Sequence record: OQ076693
Origin: Escherichia phage PNJ-6
DNA: 64,000 bases
Direction: 5' to 3' (one strand)
Positions 11,436 through 21,724 of this stretch are shown here, piece after piece. The notes beneath the pieces are model-generated. The model was given only the letters and a program-made list of their open reading frames with translations, was not told where the DNA came from and searched no databases. How positions within the stretch are numbered: position 1 is the stretch's first letter; each line of letters starts with the position of its first letter. The translations under genes and the position numbers were made by a program.

Positions 11436-14400
11436 ATGGCCGACATCAAACGTAAGTTCAGAGCCGAAGACGGTCTGGACGCCGGTGGCGACAAGATTGT
11501 TAACGTAGCATTAGCCGACCGTACAGTAGGTACTGATGGCGTAAACGTTGACTTCCTGGTACAAGAAAACACCGTTCAAGTATATGATTCTACGCGTGGA
11601 TATAACAAAGGATTTGTTGTTCTTTATGACAACCGTTTATATCAAGCAATAAATGATATCGTGTCTCCTTCCGGGGCATTTAACCTTTTACAATGGCGTG
11701 CAGTTCGTACCGATGCACAATGGATAACTGTCGCTTCTGGGACTTATCAACTTTCTTCAGGTGAATCGATTTCGGTTAACACTGGTGCTGGCAATGATAT
11801 GGTTTTCACATTGCCAAATGCGCCGGTTGATGGTGATACTGTTGTTTTGGCTGATATTGGTGGAAGAACCGGGACAGTTAAAGTACAGATTAACGCGTCT
11901 GTGCAGAGTATTTTAAACTTTAGAGGTGAACAAGTTCGTACAGTTTTAATGACGCGACCACGTTCACAACTAGTGTTTGTGTTTAGTAATCGTTTGTGGC
12001 AGATGTATATCATTGATTACGGTAAAGAATCAATCACTGTTACACCTGCGACACCATACCAAGCACAAGCAAATGATTTTATCGTTCGTCGTTTTACTAG
12101 TGCAGCACCAATCAACATTACACTTCCACGTAATGCTAACAATGGTGATATAATCAGCCTAGTCGATTTAGATAGATTAAACCCACTGTATCATACAATT
12201 GTTAAAACATTTGATGATACAACGTCTATTGGTGAAGTCGGGACTCATATTGCCGAAGGCAGAAATGACTCTGACGCGTTTTTTGTTTTTGATGCTGCAA
12301 ATAGTTTATGGCGTATATGGGAAGGCGACCAGAAATCGCGTCTTCGTATTATCCGTGCGGATTCAAATATTCGTCCAAATGAAGAAGTTCTTATTTTTGG
12401 CACAAATAACGCTACAGCCGGAACTATTAATCTTACGCTGCCTACTGGAATTTTGAGTGGTGACACTGTTAAAATTTCAATGAACTACATGCGTAAAGGC
12501 CAAACAGTAAAAATTAAAGCTGCCGAAGGTGATACAATTGCTTCTTCTATTGCGTTGCTTCAGTTCCCTAAACGTTCTGAATATCCACCTGATGCTCAAT
12601 GGGTCTCTGTTACTGAACTAGAATTCAATGGCACTACTTCATATGTTCCTGTATTAGAATTAGCGTATATCGAAGACACCGATTCTGACACTCATTATTG
12701 GGTTGTGCAACAGAATGTCCCTACGGTAGAACGTGTTGATGCTGGAACTGATGCTACACGAGCTCGTTTAGGTGTTATTGCTCTTGCTACTCAAGCGCAA
12801 GCAAATGTTGATTTAGAGAATACTCCAGCTAAAGAAGTTGCTATTACTCCTGAAACGTTGGCAAATCGTACAGCAACTGAAGCTCGACGTGGTATCGCTA
12901 AAATTGCTACAACAGCACAAGTTAACCAGAATTCCACAGCATCATTTGTGGACGATACTATTGTTACGCCTAAAAAACTAAATGAGCGTACAGCAACTGA
13001 AACTCGTCGTGGTCTTGCTGAAATTGCTACTCAGGCTGAAACCGATGCTGGTCTTGATGACACAACGATTATTACACCTAAGAAATTGCAGGCACGTCAG
13101 GGCTCTGAAACGCTGTCTGGTATAGTTAAATATGTATCGACTACTTCTGCTACTCCTGCTGAAACTCGTGGGGCTGCAGGCACTAATGTTTATAATAAAA
13201 CCGTAAATAATTTAACTATTTCTCCTAAAGCCCTTGACCAATATAAAGCAACTTACGCCCAACAAGGTGCAGTAATTTTAGCTATTGATAGTGAAGTAAT
13301 TGCTGGACAATCTCAGTCTGGATACTCTCATGCTGTAGTAACTCCTGAAACACTACATAAGAAAACTTCTACTGATGGACGTATTGGTTTAATTGAAATT
13401 GCTACGCAAACAGAAACTAATGCTGGGACTGATTATACACGTGCAGTAACGCCTAAGACGTTAAATGATAGGAAAGCTACGGAAGGATTATCCGGCATAG
13501 CCGAAATTGCTACGCAAGTTGAATTTGATACTGGAACTGATGATACTCGTATCTCAACTCCACTGAAAATTAAAACTCATTTTGATTCTTCTGACCGTAC
13601 CAGTGTTAATTCTGATTCCGGACTTATTGAAGAAGGAACCTTGTGGAACCATTATACTCTTGATATTTCTAAAGCAAATGAAACACAACGTGGTACACTT
13701 CGCGTAGCGACCCAGGCAGAATCTAATGCAGGAACTTTAGATGATGTTCTTATTACTCCTAAAAAGCTTTTAGGGACTAAGTCCACTGAAACGTCTGAAG
13801 GTGTAATCAAGGTTGCTACTCAGGCTGAAACTGTGACTGGAACGTCAGCGAACACTGCTGTATCTCCTAAGAATTTAAAATGGATTGTCCAGAACGAACC
13901 AACATGGGCTGCTACTACAGCAATTCGCGGATTCGTTAAAACTTCATCCGGTTCTATTACATTCGTTGGTAATGATACAGTCGGTTCTACACAAAACTTA
14001 GAGCTATACGAGAAAAATAGCTATGCAGTATCACCGTATGAATTAAACCGTGTATTAGCAAATTACTTGCCATTAAAAGCAAAAGCTGCTGACGCAAATT
14101 TATTAGATGGTCTAGATTCATCTCAGTTCATTCGTAGGGACATTGCACAGACGGTTAATGGTTCACTAACCTTAACCCAACAAACGAATCTGAGTGCCCC
14201 TCTTGTATCATCTAGTACTGCTACGTTTGGCGGTTCAGTTTCGGCAAATAGTACATTAACTATTTCTAATACAGGTGCTTCAACTCGCTTAATATTTGAA
14301 AAAGGTCCACAAACTGGAAACAACCCTGCTCAGGCGATGAATATCCGTGTATGGGGTAACCAATTCGCCGGCGGTTCTGATACATCTCGTGCTACGATAT

Positions 14401-15311
14401 TTGAAGTTGGTGATGAAACATCTAACCACTTTTATTCACAACGGGATAACCTTGGTAATATTACTTTCAGCATCAACGGTACAGTTCGGCCGATTAATGT
14501 TAATGCATCCGGAACATTGAATGCTAATGGTGCGGCAACATTTGGACGTTCGGTGACAGCACAGGGTGAATTTATAACCTATAGTGCAAACGCATTCAGA
14601 GCAATTAGTGGTGATTACGGATTCTTTATTCGTAATGATGCTGCTAATACCTATTTTATGCTTACTGCATCAGGTGATCAGACTGGCGGATTTAATGGAT
14701 TACGTCCTTTAGCTATTAATAATGCATCCGGCCAAGTAACGATTGGTGAAGGCTTAATCATTGCCAAAGGTGCTACTATAAATTCAGGTGGTTTAACTGT
14801 TAACTCGAGAATTCGTTCTCAGGGTTCTAAAACTGCTGATTTATACACTCGTGCTCCTACTGCTGATACAGTCGGATTCTGGTCAATCGATATTAACGAT
14901 TCAGCCACTTATAACCAGTTCCCAGGTTATTTTAAAATGGTTGAAAAAACTAATGAAGTGACTGGGCTTCCATACTTAGAACGTGGCGAAGAAGTTAAAT
15001 CTCCTGGTACACTGACTCAGTTTGGTAACACACTTGATTCACTTTACCAAGATTGGATTACTTATCCAACAACTCCAGAAGCACGTACAACCCGTTGGAC
15101 ACGTACATGGCAGAAAACTAAAAATTCTTGGTCGAGTTTTGTTCAGGTATTTGATGGTGGAAACCCTCCTCAACCTTCTGATATTGGCGCTTTACCTTCT
15201 GATAATGCAACAATCGGAAACTTGACAATAAGGGATTTCTTAAGGATTGGTAATGTCCGCATTATTCCAGATCCTGTGAATAAATCTGTTAAATTCGAGT
15301 GGATTGAATAA
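11436..15311 (+). CDS. 34: long tail fibre proximal subunit gp34
   Basis: 1291-aa ORF on the late strand; late promoter TATAAATA at 11398-11405; first of the 34-35-36-37-38 block. Confidence 0.9.
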   Translation: MADIKRKFRAEDGLDAGGDKIVNVALADRTVGTDGVNVDFLVQENTVQVYDSTRGYNKGFVVLYDNRLYQAINDIVSPSGAFNLLQWRAVRTDAQWITVASGTYQLSSGESISVNTGAGNDMVFTLPNAPVDGDTVVLADIGGRTGTVKVQINASVQSILNFRGEQVRTVLMTRPRSQLVFVFSNRLWQMYIIDYGKESITVTPATPYQAQANDFIVRRFTSAAPINITLPRNANNGDIISLVDLDRLNPLYHTIVKTFDDTTSIGEVGTHIAEGRNDSDAFFVFDAANSLWRIWEGDQKSRLRIIRADSNIRPNEEVLIFGTNNATAGTINLTLPTGILSGDTVKISMNYMRKGQTVKIKAAEGDTIASSIALLQFPKRSEYPPDAQWVSVTELEFNGTTSYVPVLELAYIEDTDSDTHYWVVQQNVPTVERVDAGTDATRARLGVIALATQAQANVDLENTPAKEVAITPETLANRTATEARRGIAKIATTAQVNQNSTASFVDDTIVTPKKLNERTATETRRGLAEIATQAETDAGLDDTTIITPKKLQARQGSETLSGIVKYVSTTSATPAETRGAAGTNVYNKTVNNLTISPKALDQYKATYAQQGAVILAIDSEVIAGQSQSGYSHAVVTPETLHKKTSTDGRIGLIEIATQTETNAGTDYTRAVTPKTLNDRKATEGLSGIAEIATQVEFDTGTDDTRISTPLKIKTHFDSSDRTSVNSDSGLIEEGTLWNHYTLDISKANETQRGTLRVATQAESNAGTLDDVLITPKKLLGTKSTETSEGVIKVATQAETVTGTSANTAVSPKNLKWIVQNEPTWAATTAIRGFVKTSSGSITFVGNDTVGSTQNLELYEKNSYAVSPYELNRVLANYLPLKAKAADANLLDGLDSSQFIRRDIAQTVNGSLTLTQQTNLSAPLVSSSTATFGGSVSANSTLTISNTGASTRLIFEKGPQTGNNPAQAMNIRVWGNQFAGGSDTSRATIFEVGDETSNHFYSQRDNLGNITFSINGTVRPINVNASGTLNANGAATFGRSVTAQGEFITYSANAFRAISGDYGFFIRNDAANTYFMLTASGDQTGGFNGLRPLAINNASGQVTIGEGLIIAKGATINSGGLTVNSRIRSQGSKTADLYTRAPTADTVGFWSIDINDSATYNQFPGYFKMVEKTNEVTGLPYLERGEEVKSPGTLTQFGNTLDSLYQDWITYPTTPEARTTRWTRTWQKTKNSWSSFVQVFDGGNPPQPSDIGALPSDNATIGNLTIRDFLRIGNVRIIPDPVNKSVKFEWIE

Positions 15312-15319
15312 GAGGTATT

Positions 15320-16447
15320 ATGGAAAAATTTATGGCTAAGTTTGGACAAGGATACGTCCAAACGCCATTTTTATCGGAAAGCAATTCAGTACGATTTAAA
15401 TTAAGCATAGCGGGCTCTTGTCCGCTATCAACGTCTCCTACTTATATTAAGTTCCAGGATAATCCACTTGGGTCCCAGGTTTTTTCCGTTGGATTAAACG
15501 TTCGTGTAATAAATCCTACAACAGGTGCAGTAGTTGAATCTAAGTCATATAATTTCTCTACTGAAAACGACGCCACGTCAAGTGCATTTGTTACTTTCAT
15601 GGACACATATGCTTCAAATTTTATATTTGCTCTTGTTACTAACGCTAAAACGAACTTTCCACCCGAAGTTCTCGCATGGTTTACTAAAGCTGGGAGTTCT
15701 GCTATTCCATTAGCTCAACAAGTTTTAAATATAGTGGACATTTCTTATTCTGCATTTTATATTTCTGGTAAGAATGCTATAGCGCTAGAACATATTAAGT
15801 ATAGTAATAAGAAAACTTCAACCGACTATAGTACACCACTTGATGTTGTGTACGACACGATCGATGATATTGGTGCTACCGGCTTCCCTAGTCGTACGTA
15901 CGAATCGACAGACACATTTTTATCTGCTGTTGGAGGTACTAATAATGAAATTAAAAGGATGCCTACAACGTCCCTTATTACACCTCTCGCTGGGTATAAA
16001 TTGAAGCCTGGAGATTTCCTTTATATGAAATTCCAACTAATGGCTGATGCCGATTTGTTAGCACAAGGGACGACACGACTTTCTATTCGTTTCTTTAAAT
16101 CTCCTTCTACTTCACCTATTTCATTTAAGGATACAAACTTTGATGGGGCTGCAGGTGAATGGAAGATATATGAAGACTACATAGAAATTCCTGCTGGTGC
16201 TGACGGGTTCACGATTTATTGTTATCGTACAGCTCCAGTCGGGCAAGGTGGATTAAGAAACGTTATATTCACTGAAGTATCATGTAATGGAAGCGTTTCA
16301 AAACCTGCTGAGTTTGGTGTAAATGGTATTCGTGTAAATTATGTTTCAGAATCTTTAAGTGCCCCAGACATAATGACATTACCTACTCAATCTTCAACTG
16401 ATACTGGTAAGGTATTTGGACAAGAATTTAAAGAAGCATCGGAATAA
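15320..16447 (+). CDS. 35: long tail fibre hinge protein gp35
   Basis: 375-aa ORF directly after 34 with SD AAGAGG; size and position as T4 gp35. Confidence 0.82.
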   Translation: MEKFMAKFGQGYVQTPFLSESNSVRFKLSIAGSCPLSTSPTYIKFQDNPLGSQVFSVGLNVRVINPTTGAVVESKSYNFSTENDATSSAFVTFMDTYASNFIFALVTNAKTNFPPEVLAWFTKAGSSAIPLAQQVLNIVDISYSAFYISGKNAIALEHIKYSNKKTSTDYSTPLDVVYDTIDDIGATGFPSRTYESTDTFLSAVGGTNNEIKRMPTTSLITPLAGYKLKPGDFLYMKFQLMADADLLAQGTTRLSIRFFKSPSTSPISFKDTNFDGAAGEWKIYEDYIEIPAGADGFTIYCYRTAPVGQGGLRNVIFTEVSCNGSVSKPAEFGVNGIRVNYVSESLSAPDIMTLPTQSSTDTGKVFGQEFKEASE

Positions 16448-16509: not shown

Positions 16510-17175
16510 ATGGCCGATTTAAAAGCTGGTAGTACAACTGGCGGTGCTGTCATATGGCATCAAGGTAATTTCCCTTTAATGCCAGCAGGTGATGACGTCC
16601 TGTATAAAACGTTTAAACTCTATTCAGAATATAATAAACCACAAGCTGCTGATAACGATTTCGTTTCTAAAGCTAACGGTGGTACGTATGCCGCTCGAGT
16701 AACATTTAATAATGGTGTGCAAGTACCTTATGCCGTAAATAACACAAATCAAAGTGGTATTTATCCTGGCAATGGCGATGCTGCTACTTTTGATACAGCA
16801 AATATTGATATTGTTTCATGGTATGGCATTGGTTTTAAATCATCACAAGGATCTGCAGGTAGAACTGTTGTTGTTAACACTCGTACTGGTGATATCAGCA
16901 CTAAAGGTGGTATTTATGCAACTGGTCCTGTCCGTTCTAACGCTACTGCTCCTGTAGCAGCGAATGACCTTACTAGAAAGGACTATGTTGATGGACGAAT
17001 AAATATTGTTACGGATAACGCAAATTCCCGTGTATTGCGTAAAGGCGACACCATGACTGGTACTTTAACAGCACCAAACTTTTTCTCACAGAATCCGGCA
17101 TCCGAGGCTAATCATGTTCCTCGTTTCGACCAGATTGTAATTAAAGATTCTGTTCAAGATTTCGGCTATTATTAA
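16510..17175 (+). CDS. 36: long tail fibre distal connector gp36
   Basis: 221-aa ORF; terminator hairpin and late promoter upstream; position between 35 and 37. Confidence 0.82.
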
Positions 17176-17183
17176 GAGGACTT

Positions 17184-20100
17184 ATGGCTACATTAAAACA
17201 GATACAATTTAAAAGAAGCAAAGTAGCAGGAGTTAATCCTACTGCAGCACAATTAGCCGAAGGCGAATTAGCGATAAACTTAAAAGATCGAACTCTTTTT
17301 ACTAAAGATGACCTCGGTAATATTATTAGCCTAGGCTTTGCTAAGGGCGGGGATATTAACGGTAATGTAACTCAAAATGGTGGTTATTTACAAAACGGCA
17401 CATTTAACCTCAATGGTAATATGTTCGTTTACGCTGGTAAGTATATTGAATTTTTACCTAAAACCGCTGGAAATGGTGCATGGGCCAACCAACATTTGAA
17501 TAAAGCCCCTATCTTTACAGATTTAAGTTCAACTACTTCTGTTTCAGAATACCATCCGCTGATTAAACAACGCTATAAAGATGGAACTTTTTCTGCTGGT
17601 ACATTAGTAAACGAAGGTAGTTTTAAATTCCATTATATTGATGAAACCGGGACTTCAAAATACTGGACTTTTAATCGAAACGGTAATTTTCAAGTTGATT
17701 CCGGAAGTTTATTAGTATCTAATGGATATTTAGTTACTCAAAGTAATATTGAAACTAAAGCTGGTTCTTTAATTGGTCCTAAAGTTATTACCAAAAATAT
17801 CAATGTGAGCACTAAATCTTGGGACACTAATATTGATACTGCATATGATTTAGTTTCATTACCGACTTGGCAGTATACTCCAACCGAAACGGATTTGGAT
17901 ACTAATGGTATAAACTACCTTCGTAAATTCCGCGGACATGTTTCTTCTGCTATTTTCCATGAAGTTGCTGATGCTCGTTCAGGTAAACCACAGAATATTT
18001 CGTATTGGACGGGGCGTAATGCTGAAGTTTATCAATGGTCTTATACCACAGATGGGCGTATGTCTGTTGCTAATTCGATAGGTATAGGTCTTGCTGATGT
18101 TGGTGACCAAGGACGTTATCCATTGGTTTCGTTTGGTAAAGGTATTGCAATTGGTGACAATGATACTGGTATTAAATGGGTTCGTGACGGGGTTATCGAT
18201 TTAGTTGCGAATGGTATTTCTGCCGGCACTATTCTTAATAATGGTATTAACAGTACTAAAAAATTGATGGTTGGTTATAGTCGAGATTCTGGTTCTACTT
18301 GGGATTACCCAAATAACAACCAAGCAATGTTTACTGCGCGTACCGATGTTGATGGTAATAATAACGGTGACGGTCAGACTCATATCGGTTATAACAGTAA
18401 TTCTAAAATGTATCACTATTTCCGTGGTACAGGTCGTATGGCTGTTGGTATGTCCCAAGGTCTCCTTGTTGAACCAGGAATTTTAGATATTAGCACTGGT
18501 TCAAATACATTAAGTTTGCGTGCTGATGGTACCGTCGCTTCTGTTCAAACATTAAAGCTTAATAATGGATTATATTTTAATGGTGATGGAACTAATGCTT
18601 CTCTAGTTTTTAAAGCAGCTTCAGGTATTGACGGCACTAAGCAAATCATGTGGGAAGGCGGTACTCGAGCAGGTCAGAATAAGAGTTATGTAACTGTTAA
18701 AGCATGGGGTAATTCATTTAACGTATCCGGCGATCGTAATCGTGAAACAGTTTTTGAAGTAGCTGACGGACAAGGATATTATTTTTATTCTCAGCGCGTA
18801 GCTCCAACCGGTTCAGAAACTGTGGGACCTGTTGTAACACAAATTAATGGACAACTGAATGCAAGAGGGAGCATTATCACCGATGGAAGTCTTAGAGTTA
18901 ATGGATTAAGTACATTATCCGGACAAGTTACTATGGATAACGGGCTTGTTTTATCCGGTGGTGGTTCTATTACCGGTCAAGTTAAAATCGGTAATACCGC
19001 AGATGCTTTCCGTATTTACAATGCTGAATATGGAGCTATTTTCCGTCGTTCTGAAGCGTCTTTGCATATTATACCTACACTTAAAGATGCAGGTGAAAGT
19101 GGTGGAATAAGTAATCTCCGCCCGCTTAGTATTAGCCTTAATAATGGTATGGTGCAAATGCGTCATTCTGTTACGTTAGGCGATGATGGTGCTGGTGGTA
19201 ATATGATTACTGTGGACAACGATAACAAACTTGTTGTTGTTACTAGTAATAGTCGCATTTCTCCTAATTTCAGAATGCAGATAGGTCAGTCGGTGTACAT
19301 CGATGCAGAATGTACTGATGCTGTTCGCCCAGCCGGAGCGGGTTCATTTGCTTCCCAGAATAATGAAAACGTTCGTGCTCCTTTCTATATGAATATTGAT
19401 AGAACAGATACAAGCACTTATGTTCCTATTGTGAAACAAAGATACGTTCAAAATAATAGTTGCTATTCTATTGGTACTTTAATTAATGGTGGTAACTTTA
19501 GAGTTCATTATCACGAAGGTGGCGATGGCGTTTCTACTGGCGCAATTATAAAGGATTTAGGTTGGGAATTTAATAAAAACGGTGATTTTTACTCTCCTGG
19601 TAAATTAGGCGCTGGTAATGTTCGTATTGGTACTGATGGTAATATCACTGGTGGTTCTGGTAATTTTGCTAACTTGAATACCACAATAAATAACCTTAAG
19701 ACGGATATTGTCTCAAGTTATCCAATTGGTGCTCCGATTCCTTGGCCTACTGATACACCTCCTGAAGGTTATGCCATAATGGAAGGTCAAACATTTGATG
19801 CTGGCTTGTATCCTAAGTTAGCTGCAGTGTATCCTTCCGGCTCTCTGCCTGATATGCGTGGTCAAACTATCAAGGGTAAACCATCTGGGCGTGCTGTATT
19901 AAGTACAGAAGCAGACGGTGTTAAGTCACATAGCCATAGTGCAAGTGCATCAAGCACAGATTTAGGTACTAAGACCACTTCTAGTTTTGATTACGGTAGC
20001 AAAACGACTTCAAGCTTTGATTATGGTACTAAGACCAGCAGTACTACTGGTAACCATAACCATACAGTAAGTGGGAACACCAGTTCAGCCGGTGCTCACC

Positions 20101-20474
20101 AGCACGCTCGTTCAGGTCCACAGGTCACTGCTGCATGGGCAGACGATTTGTTTAGAGACGGGGTTACTACGATAAGTGCAAACGCATATGCTAAACTTAA
20201 CTCAGGTATCACTGGTTCGACTTTAGCAACTAAGGTCGGTAAAACATCAAATGATGGCGCCCATACCCACTCTTGGTCTGGTACTACTAGCACCACAGGT
20301 AACCATGCCCATACCGTTGGTATTGGTGCTCATACGCATACTGTCGGTATTGGTGCTCATTCTCATACTGTTTCAATTGGTTCCCATGGCCATACAATAA
20401 CTGTAAATGCCACAGGAAATACAGAAAACACAGTTAAAAACGTTGCTTTTAACTATATCGTTCGTTTAGCATAA
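17184..20474 (+). CDS. 37: long tail fibre distal subunit gp37 (receptor-recognising tip)
   Basis: 1096-aa ORF; C-terminal His-rich HxH repeats ([29 protein letters not shown]) and 10-aa tandem repeats ([10 protein letters not shown]). Confidence 0.9.
19965..20048 (+). repeat. tandem 30-nt coding repeats in the gp37 tip ([10 protein letters not shown] units)
   Basis: Units ggtactaagaccacttctagttttgattac / ggtagcaaaacgacttcaagctttgattat / partial third copy, in frame in gene 37. Confidence 0.7.
20299..20398 (+). repeat. tandem 27-nt His-rich coding repeats in the gp37 tip (G-x-H-x-H-T-V)
   Basis: Four units encoding [34 protein letters not shown]. Confidence 0.7.
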
Positions 20475-20480
20475 GGAGAA

Positions 20481-20498
20481 GGGACTTCTGTCCCTTTT
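20481..20498 (+). terminator. hairpin plus T-run between genes 37 and 38
   Basis: GGGAC-TTCT-GTCCC followed by TTTT, 6 nt after the gene 37 stop; gene 38 starts 10 nt later, so probably partial termination. Confidence 0.5.
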
Positions 20499-20503
20499 AT
20501 AAT

Positions 20504-21055
20504 ATGAAACTCTATCACTATTATTTTGACACTAAAGAATTTTACAAAGAAGAAAATTATAAACCATTAAAAGGCGTAGGATTTCCGGCTCATTCGACAC
20601 CAAAAAAACCTTTAGACCCTAAAGAAGGCTATGCTGTTGTATTTGACGAACGCGAACAAGAATGGGTATATGTTGAAGACCATCGTGGAAAAACAGTATG
20701 GACTTATGATAAGCAAAAAATTGTTATTGACACTCCAGGTGCTCTTCAAAATGTTACTACAGAAGAACCTGGTGAATTTGACATTTGGACCGACGACGGG
20801 TGGAAGGAAGATGAAGCGTATAAACGCGTAGTTCAACGTGATAGGAAAATTCATGAACTCTATAAATTATTCAGTGTTTTAAGTTCTCTTATTGACGCAG
20901 AGGTTGCTAATAGAGAAGAAAAACGAAAATTTAAAGAGCTCAAAAAATTCTTTGCCCTTTTAGAAAAACACGAACATCTTGGTGGTGAATTCCCTAAATT
21001 CCCTGACCTTGAAAACAAATCTATTTTCAAAGCGATTATAAATATCTTTAAGTAA
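20504..21055 (+). CDS. 38: tail fibre assembly chaperone gp38 (T4-type)
   Basis: 183-aa ORF immediately after 37; T4 gp38-like N-terminus (MKLYHYYFDTKEFYKEENYKP) and size. Confidence 0.85.
   Translation: MKLYHYYFDTKEFYKEENYKPLKGVGFPAHSTPKKPLDPKEGYAVVFDEREQEWVYVEDHRGKTVWTYDKQKIVIDTPGALQNVTTEEPGEFDIWTDDGWKEDEAYKRVVQRDRKIHELYKLFSVLSSLIDAEVANREEKRKFKELKKFFALLEKHEHLGGEFPKFPDLENKSIFKAIINIFK
21037..21044 (+). promoter_or_regulatory. late promoter (TATAAATA) for holin t
   Basis: Exact TATAAATA inside the 3' end of gene 38, 21 nt before the t ATG. Confidence 0.55.
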
Positions 21056-21064
21056 GGAGGTATT

Positions 21065-21724
21065 ATGGCAACACCAAAAGTGTCATTTTCACCTAGTGAT
21101 ATTCTATTTGGGTTGCTAGATCGTATTTTCAAAGATAACGCTACTGGAAAGGTTTTAATGTCACGAGTAGCGGTAATTATTCTTTTGTTCCTAATGGCAC
21201 TAATATGGTACAAAGGAAGTATTTTGCTGGATTATTACGTAAGAGCTAAGTATGATACTTATACTGAAATAATCCAAAAAGAACGAGCTTTACGTTTTGA
21301 ATCTGCGGCTCTAGAACAACTGCAAATAGTTCATATCTCATCTGGTGCAGATTTTAGTGCTGTGTATTCTTTCAGACCTAAAAACTTAAATTATTTTGTC
21401 GACCTTATAGCTTATGAAGGCAAACTACCTAGCACAATTTCTGAAAAGTCCCTTGGTGGATTCCCGGTGGATAAAACGGCCAATGAATATATAATTCATT
21501 TAAGTGGCCGTCATTTCTCATCTAAATCAGAATTTGCATTTTTGCCTACAAAATCTAAGACTGCCGAACTTTCTTATATGTATAGTTGTCCATACTTTAA
21601 TTTGGATAACATCTATGCTGGAACTGTGACGATGTATTGGTATAAGGGGAATAATATACTTGAGGAGGATCGCTTAGCGGCTATATGCAACCAAGCGGTC
21701 CGAATACTAGGAAGGGCTAAATAA
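21065..21724 (+). CDS. t: holin T
   Basis: 219-aa ORF; single N-terminal transmembrane segment (VAVIILLFLMALIWY) plus large C-terminal domain; late promoter at 21037-21044. Confidence 0.9.
   Translation: MATPKVSFSPSDILFGLLDRIFKDNATGKVLMSRVAVIILLFLMALIWYKGSILLDYYVRAKYDTYTEIIQKERALRFESAALEQLQIVHISSGADFSAVYSFRPKNLNYFVDLIAYEGKLPSTISEKSLGGFPVDKTANEYIIHLSGRHFSSKSEFAFLPTKSKTAELSYMYSCPYFNLDNIYAGTVTMYWYKGNNILEEDRLAAICNQAVRILGRAK

Follow-up and report, generated by a model that had tools for sequence, protein, structure and literature searches.

The tail-fibre tip of Escherichia phage PNJ-6 carries two coding repeat arrays whose unit numbers vary as matched pairs across homologous tips

The window that we analysed, i.e., a stretch of 64,000 nt from Escherichia phage PNJ-6 (sequence record OQ076693), contains gene 37, whose product is annotated in relatives as "long tail fiber protein distal subunit," followed by gene 38 (Table 1). 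The C-terminal tip of gp37 carries eight HxH motifs (H916, H958, H972, H1027, H1041, H1050, H1059, and H1068), which flank a central head on both sides, with three before and five after it in PNJ-6 compared with three and four in T4. The spacings between successive motifs are 42, 14, 55, 14, 9, 9, 9 in PNJ-6 and 32, 14, 37, 14, 9, 9 in T4, and the last HxH lies 29 residues from the C terminus in all complete tips except P0233 (28).

Table 1. Features of the gene 37/38 region of PNJ-6, in coordinates of the window
Feature	Coordinates	Strand	Remarks
Gene 37 (distal long-tail-fibre subunit)	17184..20474	+	1096 aa, single ORF; T4 gp37 is 1026 aa
Collar domain, aa 849-896	19728..19871	+	Pfam PF07484 Collar, E 7.9e-11; aligns with the 2XGF collar
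First HxH, SHSHS (H916/H918), needle top, descending strand	19929..19937	+	Corresponds to T4 H883/H885
Descending-strand 10-aa units	19965..20054	+	T4 has one unit less; 10-aa insertion relative to 2XGF/T4
Descending 14-aa module	20055..20105	+	Bounded by HxH at H958 (GNHNH) and H972 (GAHQH); 14-spacing shared with T4
Head (receptor-binding) segment, aa 975-1026	20106..20261	+	Hypervariable among relatives; T4 head 18 aa shorter
Ascending 14-aa module	20262..20303	+	Begins at HxH H1027 (GAHTH)
Ascending-strand array	20304..20393	+	HxH H1041/1050/1059/1068 with three 9-aa units between; two in T4; 9-aa insertion relative to T4
C-terminal 26 aa	20394..20471	+	Return to collar, by homology
Conserved RNA hairpin between GGAG Shine-Dalgarno-like sequence and gene 38 AUG	20477..20498	+	MFE -15.1 kcal/mol, z -3.9
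Gene 38, T4-type tail-fibre assembly chaperone, 183 aa	20504..21055	+	Pfam PF02413, PHROG 105

By means of phmmer, the PNJ-6 tip was matched to the T4 gp37 tip (2xgf_A) with an E value of 4.6e-87, the strongest aligned stretches being query residues 19-174 and 230-296, and the alignment to 2XGF/T4 shows insertions of 10 aa in the descending part and 9 aa in the ascending part, with a differing middle. An earlier note on this DNA had regarded the protein as gp37, with a repeated motif that binds metal ions in the tip needle; this match supports a T4-type gp37 whose HxH motifs are the counterparts of those that coordinate iron in the solved T4 tip, and metal binding by the PNJ-6 motifs would be analogous to the iron binding described for T4 (PMC6957217). 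More specifically, PNJ-6 resembles the T4 tip (PDB 2XGF; Bartual et al. 2010) in its collar/needle/head layout, its HxH motifs, the 29 C-terminal residues after the last of these, and the adjoining gp38 chaperone, but it has one more descending 10-aa unit, one more ascending 9-aa unit, and eight HxH motifs rather than seven. In addition, its head is unrelated to that of T4 and longer (the innermost HxH motifs are 55 residues apart, compared with 37 in T4). Residues 1010-1026 of T4 gp37 are part of domain D10 (PMC6957217).

The 30-nt and 27-nt coding repeats proposed earlier for the C-terminal region of gp37 are both present, within one ORF. The 30-nt array consists of copies at 19965-19994, 19995-20024, and 20025-20054, the third of which is degenerate (i.e., 2.5 ten-residue units), and a repeat search recovered the three copies at 30-nt spacing with 70-73% identity to the reference copy. 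The 27-nt array comprises 20310-20336 (HTVGIGAHT), 20337-20363 (HTVGIGAHS), and a third copy at 20364-20390; Tandem Repeats Finder, run on the DNA, reported this array (period 27, 2.3 copies, 88% matches) but not the 30-nt one. Read in an alternative register, the 27-nt units include GSHGHTI, i.e., the G-x-H-x-H-T-V form that had been ascribed to them. The order of the two arrays is also as previously described, but the second does not directly succeed the first, as ~255 nt intervene, in which the 52-aa head segment and a further two HxH motifs are encoded. The 10-aa descending units contain no histidines, whereas each 9-aa HTVGIGAHx ascending unit adds one HxH.

Descending units 1 and 2 are alike at 9/10 residues and 23/30 nt (binomial P ~1e-8 for a pre-specified pair), and ascending units 1 and 2 at 23/27 nt (P ~2e-10). 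That such repeats merely reflect chance or the composition of a Gly/Thr/Ser/His-rich sequence, as the low complexity of the region and the silence of Tandem Repeats Finder on the 30-nt array might suggest, has in our view a negligible probability, given unit identities far above chance, the retention of units with exact spacing in hundreds of homologues, and the homology to the solved structure 2XGF. With an identity of only 73-88% at the DNA level, we take the repeats to be structural repeats of the protein rather than slippage-prone perfect DNA repeats. To date the duplications, we set the divergence of a given unit among phages against that among the units of one phage, but sequences of this length are too short for the purpose and the two sets of values overlap.

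We compared tips from 117 close homologues, 80 IMG/VR loci, 146 representatives (50% identity clusters), and an additional 45 unique tips taken from bacterial genomes. Among ~265 unique homologous tips, the numbers of 10-aa and 9-aa units vary jointly, from 1 to 6 units, with one mismatch: first HxH spacings of 22, 32, 42, 52, 62, and 73 are paired with 1, 2, 3, 4, 5, and 6 terminal 9-aa spacings, respectively. Likewise, the 14-aa modules occur in 0/0, 1/1, or 2/2 copies on the two sides, and one Rahnella prophage carries the module in a 12/12 form. In a combined table of 220 unique tips, 218 fell into matched classes, one had lost a single HxH, and one, the metagenome contig L003 (IMG/VR UViG_3300030021_000020), showed a unit-count mismatch. 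Head length ranges from 33 to 70 within matched classes, and tips with very different heads keep to the same rule. The eight module combinations in the 220-tip table require at least seven architecture changes (nine combinations when a class from the 45 further tips is included), a plain count over mutually related sequences. A rule of matched pairs for module number is well supported. The suggestion in the earlier note that repeat number changes needle length holds insofar as unit number differs across the family, but the two arrays do not change independently of each other.

Several other tips that appeared to break the rule proved not to do so. An extra HxH within the first spacer explains both P0219 and P0230, one HxH has been lost in each of P0231 and L160, and in a prophage of Ca. 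Erwinia dacicola (L124) a 2-aa deletion removes one HxH while leaving the unit count intact; several further cases were truncated proteins. In L003, exactly one 27-nt unit is missing, and the gap sits inside the 27-nt array where identity to PNJ-6 jumps from ~78% to ~99%, a junction compatible with unequal crossing-over as well as with chimeric assembly.

We consider it very probable that this region encodes the tip with which a T4-type long tail fibre binds its receptor, and that its two arrays are the two halves of a matched needle module. Each of three gp37 chains would run down from the collar, form part of a small receptor-touching head, and run back up; the product would be a six-stranded needle whose core may be stapled, by analogy with T4 and its iron, by metal ions held by HxH motifs of the three chains, with octahedral coordination on the threefold axis of a homotrimer as in the T4-type tip. 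The 10-aa units would be the descending half, and the 9-aa HTVGIGAHx units the ascending half, of one hairpin-like module. In T4, i+j is ~1891-1893 for the reported contact pairs G921-F970 and G964-H929 as well as for the needle boundaries at 882 and 1009 (PMC6957217), indicative of an antiparallel down/up register. With three modules versus two in T4, PNJ-6 thus has one HxH motif more and a needle that is predicted to be longer by one module. Since the two halves would face each other in the folded trimer, a viable change in unit number is expected only in matched pairs; as the descending unit has 10 residues and the ascending one 9, pairing would not be residue for residue. Metal occupancy, the exact strand register, an eighth metal site, and the gain of one needle module are what we infer from these comparisons. 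An AlphaFold2 model of the 296-aa tip, built as a monomer from a 35-sequence alignment whereas the native form is an obligate intertwined trimer, had a mean pLDDT of 46.8 and a pTM of 0.17 and was thus uninformative.

The earlier note had treated copy number as a host-range variable, and had named an invariant repeat number across relatives with different host ranges as the observation that would speak against this. All 11 close relatives (11/11), namely, 10 cultured Mosigvirus phages and VR25, keep the PNJ-6 copy number (42, 14, x, 14, 9, 9, 9), and the sources of the cultured phages were E. coli K-12, O157:H7, APEC, EAEC, Shigella sonnei, or sea water. This is in essence the pattern that the note had named, and copy number as the host-range variable is not supported. 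The differences lie instead in the head: the 11 relatives bear at least five different heads, and in those with other head types identity to PNJ-6 is 17-44% in the head and 87-100% in the flanking repeats. More specifically, the gp37 proteins of Mosigvirus LH01, G53, SHSML-52-1, HX01, and JS09 share the PNJ-6 architecture (42, 14, 55, 14, 9, 9, 9), and DNA identity from the gp37 tip to gp38 is 93-96% in this comparison. LH01, G53, and SHSML-52-1 have the PNJ-6 head type (92-94% identity), PNJ-6 showing only point differences from the LH01/G53 group, whereas HX01, JS09, PNJ-9, and mar009P5 have heads of other types. The gp37 of G53 and its relatives has been described as T4-like in its needle, with seven to nine His-X-His repeats, and varying HxH counts have previously been reported among near-identical phages such as G53 (PMC6563267).

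These data bear on the idea that the two arrays are hot spots of expansion and contraction, in which frequent copy-number change would alter needle length and host range in the manner of a contingency locus. Several observations are in line with it. Unit number ranges from 1 to 6 over the wider family, the ascending units contain a 15-nt exact direct repeat (GGTATTGGTGCTCAT) with copies 27 nt apart, the two descending units of VR25 match at 30/30 nt, pointing to a conversion or duplication in the recent past, and L003 is short of exactly one 27-nt unit. Moreover, according to the summary of Tetart 1996 given by PMC7002106, host range was extended to Yersinia by duplications within T4 gene 37, and 'His-box' duplication end points are mentioned in one-line summaries in PMC7002106 and PMC3157838. 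Nevertheless, we judge this explanation very unlikely: copy number is constant in 10/10 cultured close relatives plus VR25, in which hosts and heads differ, the DNA units lack the near-identity noted above, a change in one array only was seen in 1 of ~265 unique tips, at the identity-jump junction of L003, and the receptor-contact residues of T4 map to the head (929-960; PMC6957217). Near-perfect units whose copy number varies among close relatives, by which slippage-prone contingency repeats are recognised, were not what we found. Under the matched-module reading, it is mainly the hypervariable head separating the two arrays that would determine host specificity, and this head would be swapped among phages while the HxH-bearing flanks are kept.

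Such swapping raises the question of whether the HxH-bearing repeats serve mainly as recombination linkers for the exchange or duplication of head cassettes, a role that would be compatible with a structural one. The divergence of heads between nearly constant flanks is as such exchange would leave it, and the same tip type is found on fibres with unrelated N termini, both T4-like and from lambdoid, P2-like, or Mu-like prophages. In addition, a 29-nt direct repeat of 79% identity (20040-20068/20289-20317) encloses the head together with both 14-aa modules, and the L003 junction falls within the 27-nt array. Conservation of the segment is, however, already accounted for by its structural and metal-binding role, replacement of the head-proximal T4 residues H929 and H931 by alanine is lethal (PMC6957217), and a single recombination junction has been mapped. 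A linker function as the main role of the repeats is a serious possibility to which we give slightly less than even weight.

Taken as a whole, the PNJ-6 tip is a standard fibre tip of the T4/lambda type, ~95% identical to published phage tips and in that sense already known, and the matched-module rule is a small addition to known biology. The tip of lambda Stf (L092 and identical lambda-like contigs; 42, 14, 48, 14, 9, 9, 9) has the PNJ-6 architecture, with two 10-aa-type units and three 9-aa units, and its chaperone Tfa is 33% identical to PNJ-6 gp38, but its head is another one and its N-terminal shaft is unrelated; lambda being a siphovirus, attachment of the fibre also differs. The long and short tail-fibre tips of the Felixounavirus Bas63 likewise form T4-like HxH needles, with six to seven motifs and a distantly related sequence; HxH number was suggested by the Bas63 authors to scale with needle length (PMC12609058). 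For fibre engineering and annotation, both arrays would have to be lengthened or shortened jointly, the head between the innermost HxH motifs could be handled as an exchangeable specificity cassette, and the predicted number of metal sites can be read straight from the sequence. A more speculative reading, which we consider rather doubtful, is that needle length is a quantised trait under selection, changing by modules of 10 down plus 9 up or 14 plus 14, so that it would act as an adaptive ruler with which lineages set module number from 1 to 6 for head reach through O-antigen or capsule. If so, the eight-site needle of PNJ-6 would be one setting, and paired module engineering could retarget fibres.

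Gene 38 was likewise assigned by homology. Over 179 aa, PNJ-6 gp38 shares 68% identity with T4 gp38; its identity to lambda Tfa (orf-194) is 33%, and it matches the Pfam family Caudo_TAP (PF02413) at 23.1 bits (cut-off, 22.1) and PHROG 105 'tail fiber assembly' (E 9e-50), with all family matches being assembly proteins. When the 183-aa protein was compared with the PDB, the S16 gp38 adhesin (6F45) went unmatched even at E values up to 1. The distal fibre of T2/T6/S16 (PDB 6F45) has genes 37 and 38 in the same genomic position and the same host-recognition job, but there gp38 is a ~260-aa adhesin with glycine-rich motifs that remains on the fibre, whereas PNJ-6 gp38 is of the unrelated chaperone type. 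The view that a T4-type chaperone follows gene 37, and not an adhesin, is thereby upheld, and gp38 would fold the tip and be absent from the finished fibre. Of the 81 comparison loci, 74 have a Tfa/gp38-like ORF directly after the fibre gene, and none was recovered in the other seven. We also considered if gp38 type tracks needle class, which is not the case: VR25 has the PNJ-6 needle class with a T4-like gp38 (87% identical to that of T4), and L003 has the PNJ-6 gp38 with a deviant needle. At the junction of the two genes, a scan for consensus terminators past gene 37 reported nothing, whereas folding gives a strong hairpin there (Table 1). The same hairpin is found in T4, and the sequence changes preserve its pairing.

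The window is DNA of a T4-like, Mosigvirus-group coliphage: several E. coli phages are 97% identical to a 20-kb stretch of it, and Mosigvirus isolates gave the nearest tail-fiber matches. The order of its tail-fiber genes, from gp34 to holin t, is the standard one. The fiber knee protein, gp35, carries a match to an unexpected family, Pfam ILEI (interleukin-like EMT inducer, PF15711; aa 58-129, E = 6.3e-7).

Tail-fiber genes and adjoining holin gene of the PNJ-6 window
Gene	Position	Strand	Remarks
gp34	11436-15311		
gp35	15320-16447		
gp36	16510-17175		Pfam Phage_T4_gp36
gp37	17184-20474	+	1096 aa; 3' end holds the repeat coordinates flagged by the earlier note
gp38	20504-21055		
holin t	21065-21724		Pfam Phage_holin_T

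The last 296 residues of gp37 matched the sequence of the solved T4 gp37 tip (PDB entry 2XGF; E = 4.6e-87), and a collar domain was detected in gp37 by Pfam. In T4, the needle comprises residues 882-1009 with the receptor-binding tip mid-needle, seven iron ions lie in line along its axis, bound by the seven HxH motifs that each of the three chains contributes, and changing the iron-binding histidines H929 and H931 to alanine is lethal (PMC6957217). Alignment to T4 gp37 showed 10 extra residues in the window protein behind the first 10-aa unit and nine more among its HTVxIGxHx units, and its middle is longer and unrelated. More specifically, its HxH motifs lie at H916, 958, 972, 1027, 1041, 1050, 1059, and 1068 (residues between successive motifs, [42,14,55,14,9,9,9]), relative to 883, 915, 929, 966, 980, 989, and 998 ([32,14,37,14,9,9]) in T4.

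The earlier note had described tandem coding repeats in the gp37 C-terminal region, with 30-nt repeats followed by 27-nt repeats. Translation confirmed both: 19965-20054 encodes 30 residues as 10-aa (descending) units, and 20310-20390 encodes 27 residues as 9-aa (ascending) units, the DNA repeats themselves being imperfect. Units 1 and 2 of the 30-nt array are alike at 23/30 nt and 9/10 residues (chance probability ~1e-8), and those of the 27-nt array at 23/27 nt (~2e-10). TRF reported the 27-nt array and not the 30-nt array; a separate repeat search of the window recovered both. The order of the arrays was as described, but they are not adjacent, being parted by ~255 nt of non-repetitive sequence. 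A 29-nt direct repeat (79% identity; 20040-20068 and 20289-20317, each copy encoding 10 residues) has its copies 249 nt apart, flanking both 14-aa modules and the head that lies between the arrays, and is a possible substrate for duplication or deletion of the entire head cassette. In the comparison locus VR25, the two descending units agree at 30/30 nt, against a range of 17-25/30 among the other phages compared, yet the ascending units agree at only 23/27; the sequences suggest recent gene conversion or re-duplication of the descending units in the VR25 lineage.

We took the HxH spacing pattern from 117 close homologues, 80 IMG/VR viral loci, 146 cluster representatives (50% identity), and 80 bacterial-genome loci with 45 further unique tips. 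A descending first spacing of 22, 32, 42, 52, 62, or 73 was always paired with 1, 2, 3, 4, 5, or 6 ascending terminal 9-aa spacings, respectively, and the head-adjoining 14-aa spacing was present 0, 1, or 2 times, in equal count on both sides. Matched classes accounted for 218 of the 220 unique tips in the combined table; likewise, the 45 further tips from bacterial genomes were consistent with both rules. As head length in the matched classes ranged from 33 to 70, the matching holds across tips with quite different heads. Upon inspection, apparently deviant tips reflected loss or gain of a single HxH, truncation, or, in a symbiont prophage, a 2-aa deletion. In a Rahnella perminowiae prophage (L137), the head-proximal modules have 12 residues rather than 14 on both sides, which looks like an independent matched change.

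Residue sums are ~1891-1893 for each of the T4 contacts (G921-F970, G964-H929) and for the needle limits (882, 1009; PMC6957217); the descending and ascending strands are therefore antiparallel and in register, and matched array lengths are exactly what this geometry demands. We read the two "tandem repeats" as a single structural module in two halves. On this reading, the window needle would have three modules versus two in T4, the third being predicted to add an eighth metal site and to lengthen the needle by one module. The matched-module rule is a direct consequence of the known hairpin topology; an explicit statement of it was not found in the literature searched, and the rest of the feature is of an already known biological type.

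The sole tip with unmatched unit numbers, on a 10.5-kb metagenome contig (L003, IMG/VR UViG_3300030021_000020), has two full descending units and just two 9-aa spacings. Its identity to the window is ~75-80% upstream of ~20370 and 98-99% from 20374 through gp38, and a clean 27-nt gap (alignment to window 20345-20373) falls exactly at this switch, where identity rises from ~78% to ~99%. Either a natural unequal crossover took place within the 27-nt array, or two co-occurring strains were joined in a chimeric assembly.

Repeat copy number had been proposed as a host-range variable, with constancy among relatives of differing host range named beforehand as refuting it. This comparison was run, and the pattern [42,14,x,14,9,9,9] was found in VR25 and in 10/10 cultured relatives (LH01, G53, HX01, JS09, JK36, phi25-307, O157 typing phage 13, PNJ-9, SHSML-52-1, and mar009P5), despite hosts or sources spanning E. 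coli K-12, O157:H7, APEC, EAEC, Shigella sonnei, and sea water; the proposal thus fails for this group. In all cultured relatives scored, each of the two arrays had 87-100% identity to the window, O157 typing phage 13 being unscorable owing to a run of unknown bases within its gp37 tip (KP869111.1), which is also why that record has no annotated gp37 CDS. The head (aa 975-1026) was 92-94% identical to that of the window in 3/10 relatives and 17-44% identical in the other seven, among which four or more further head types occur. Judging from these comparisons, specificity in this phage group is varied by head exchange, not by repeat number. Module number does vary across the wider family, so needle length has changed in evolution, always by matched steps; the idea that repeat number alters needle length stands in that form only. 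Overall, what the earlier note had observed holds, and its interpretation is supported in part. Duplications in T4 gene 37 reportedly extended host range to Yersinia (Tetart 1996, as summarized in PMC7002106).

The window tip is a known kind of structure and a near-duplicate of published sequences. Korf et al. 2019 described gp37 of G53, which is 95% identical to the window across the tip region, and of related isolates as having seven to nine His-X-His repeats and a T4-like needle (PMC6563267). The Bas63 paper suggested that the longer the needle, the more HxH motifs it has (PMC12609058), and Krisch and co-workers proposed recombination via conserved adhesin motifs (PMC3157838). Lambda Stf has the same type of architecture ([42,14,48,14,9,9,9]; two 10-aa-type units). 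Identical lambda-Stf-type matches in low-coverage genome contigs (L092-L102 and L142; several ~48.4-48.5 kb), from assemblies of unrelated bacteria (Chromatium, Shewanella, Neobacillus, Paenibacillus, Pseudomonas, Leeuwenhoekiella, and Kitasatospora), look like contamination with phage lambda DNA.

The downstream gp38 had been called a T4-type chaperone rather than a gp38 adhesin, rightly so, because it shares 68% identity with T4 gp38 over 179 aa and 33% with lambda Tfa, falls into Pfam Caudo_TAP and PHROG 105 ("tail fiber assembly"), and has no S16-type adhesin match among solved structures. A weak sequence match of its aa 68-171 to one glutathione transferase chain (6to3, E = 1.4e-4) is probably spurious.

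T4 gene 38 is a classic case in which a hairpin draws a distant Shine-Dalgarno sequence near the start codon. In the window, a strong, conserved, extended hairpin (AGGGAC-UUCU-GUCCCU; 20474-20506; -15.1 kcal/mol, z -3.9) separates a GGAG Shine-Dalgarno-like sequence from the gene 38 AUG ~26 nt downstream. The T4 counterpart, GGGGC-UUCG-GCCCC, differs from it in ways that preserve pairing, and the G53 record has a terminator annotated at this gene 37-38 hairpin site.
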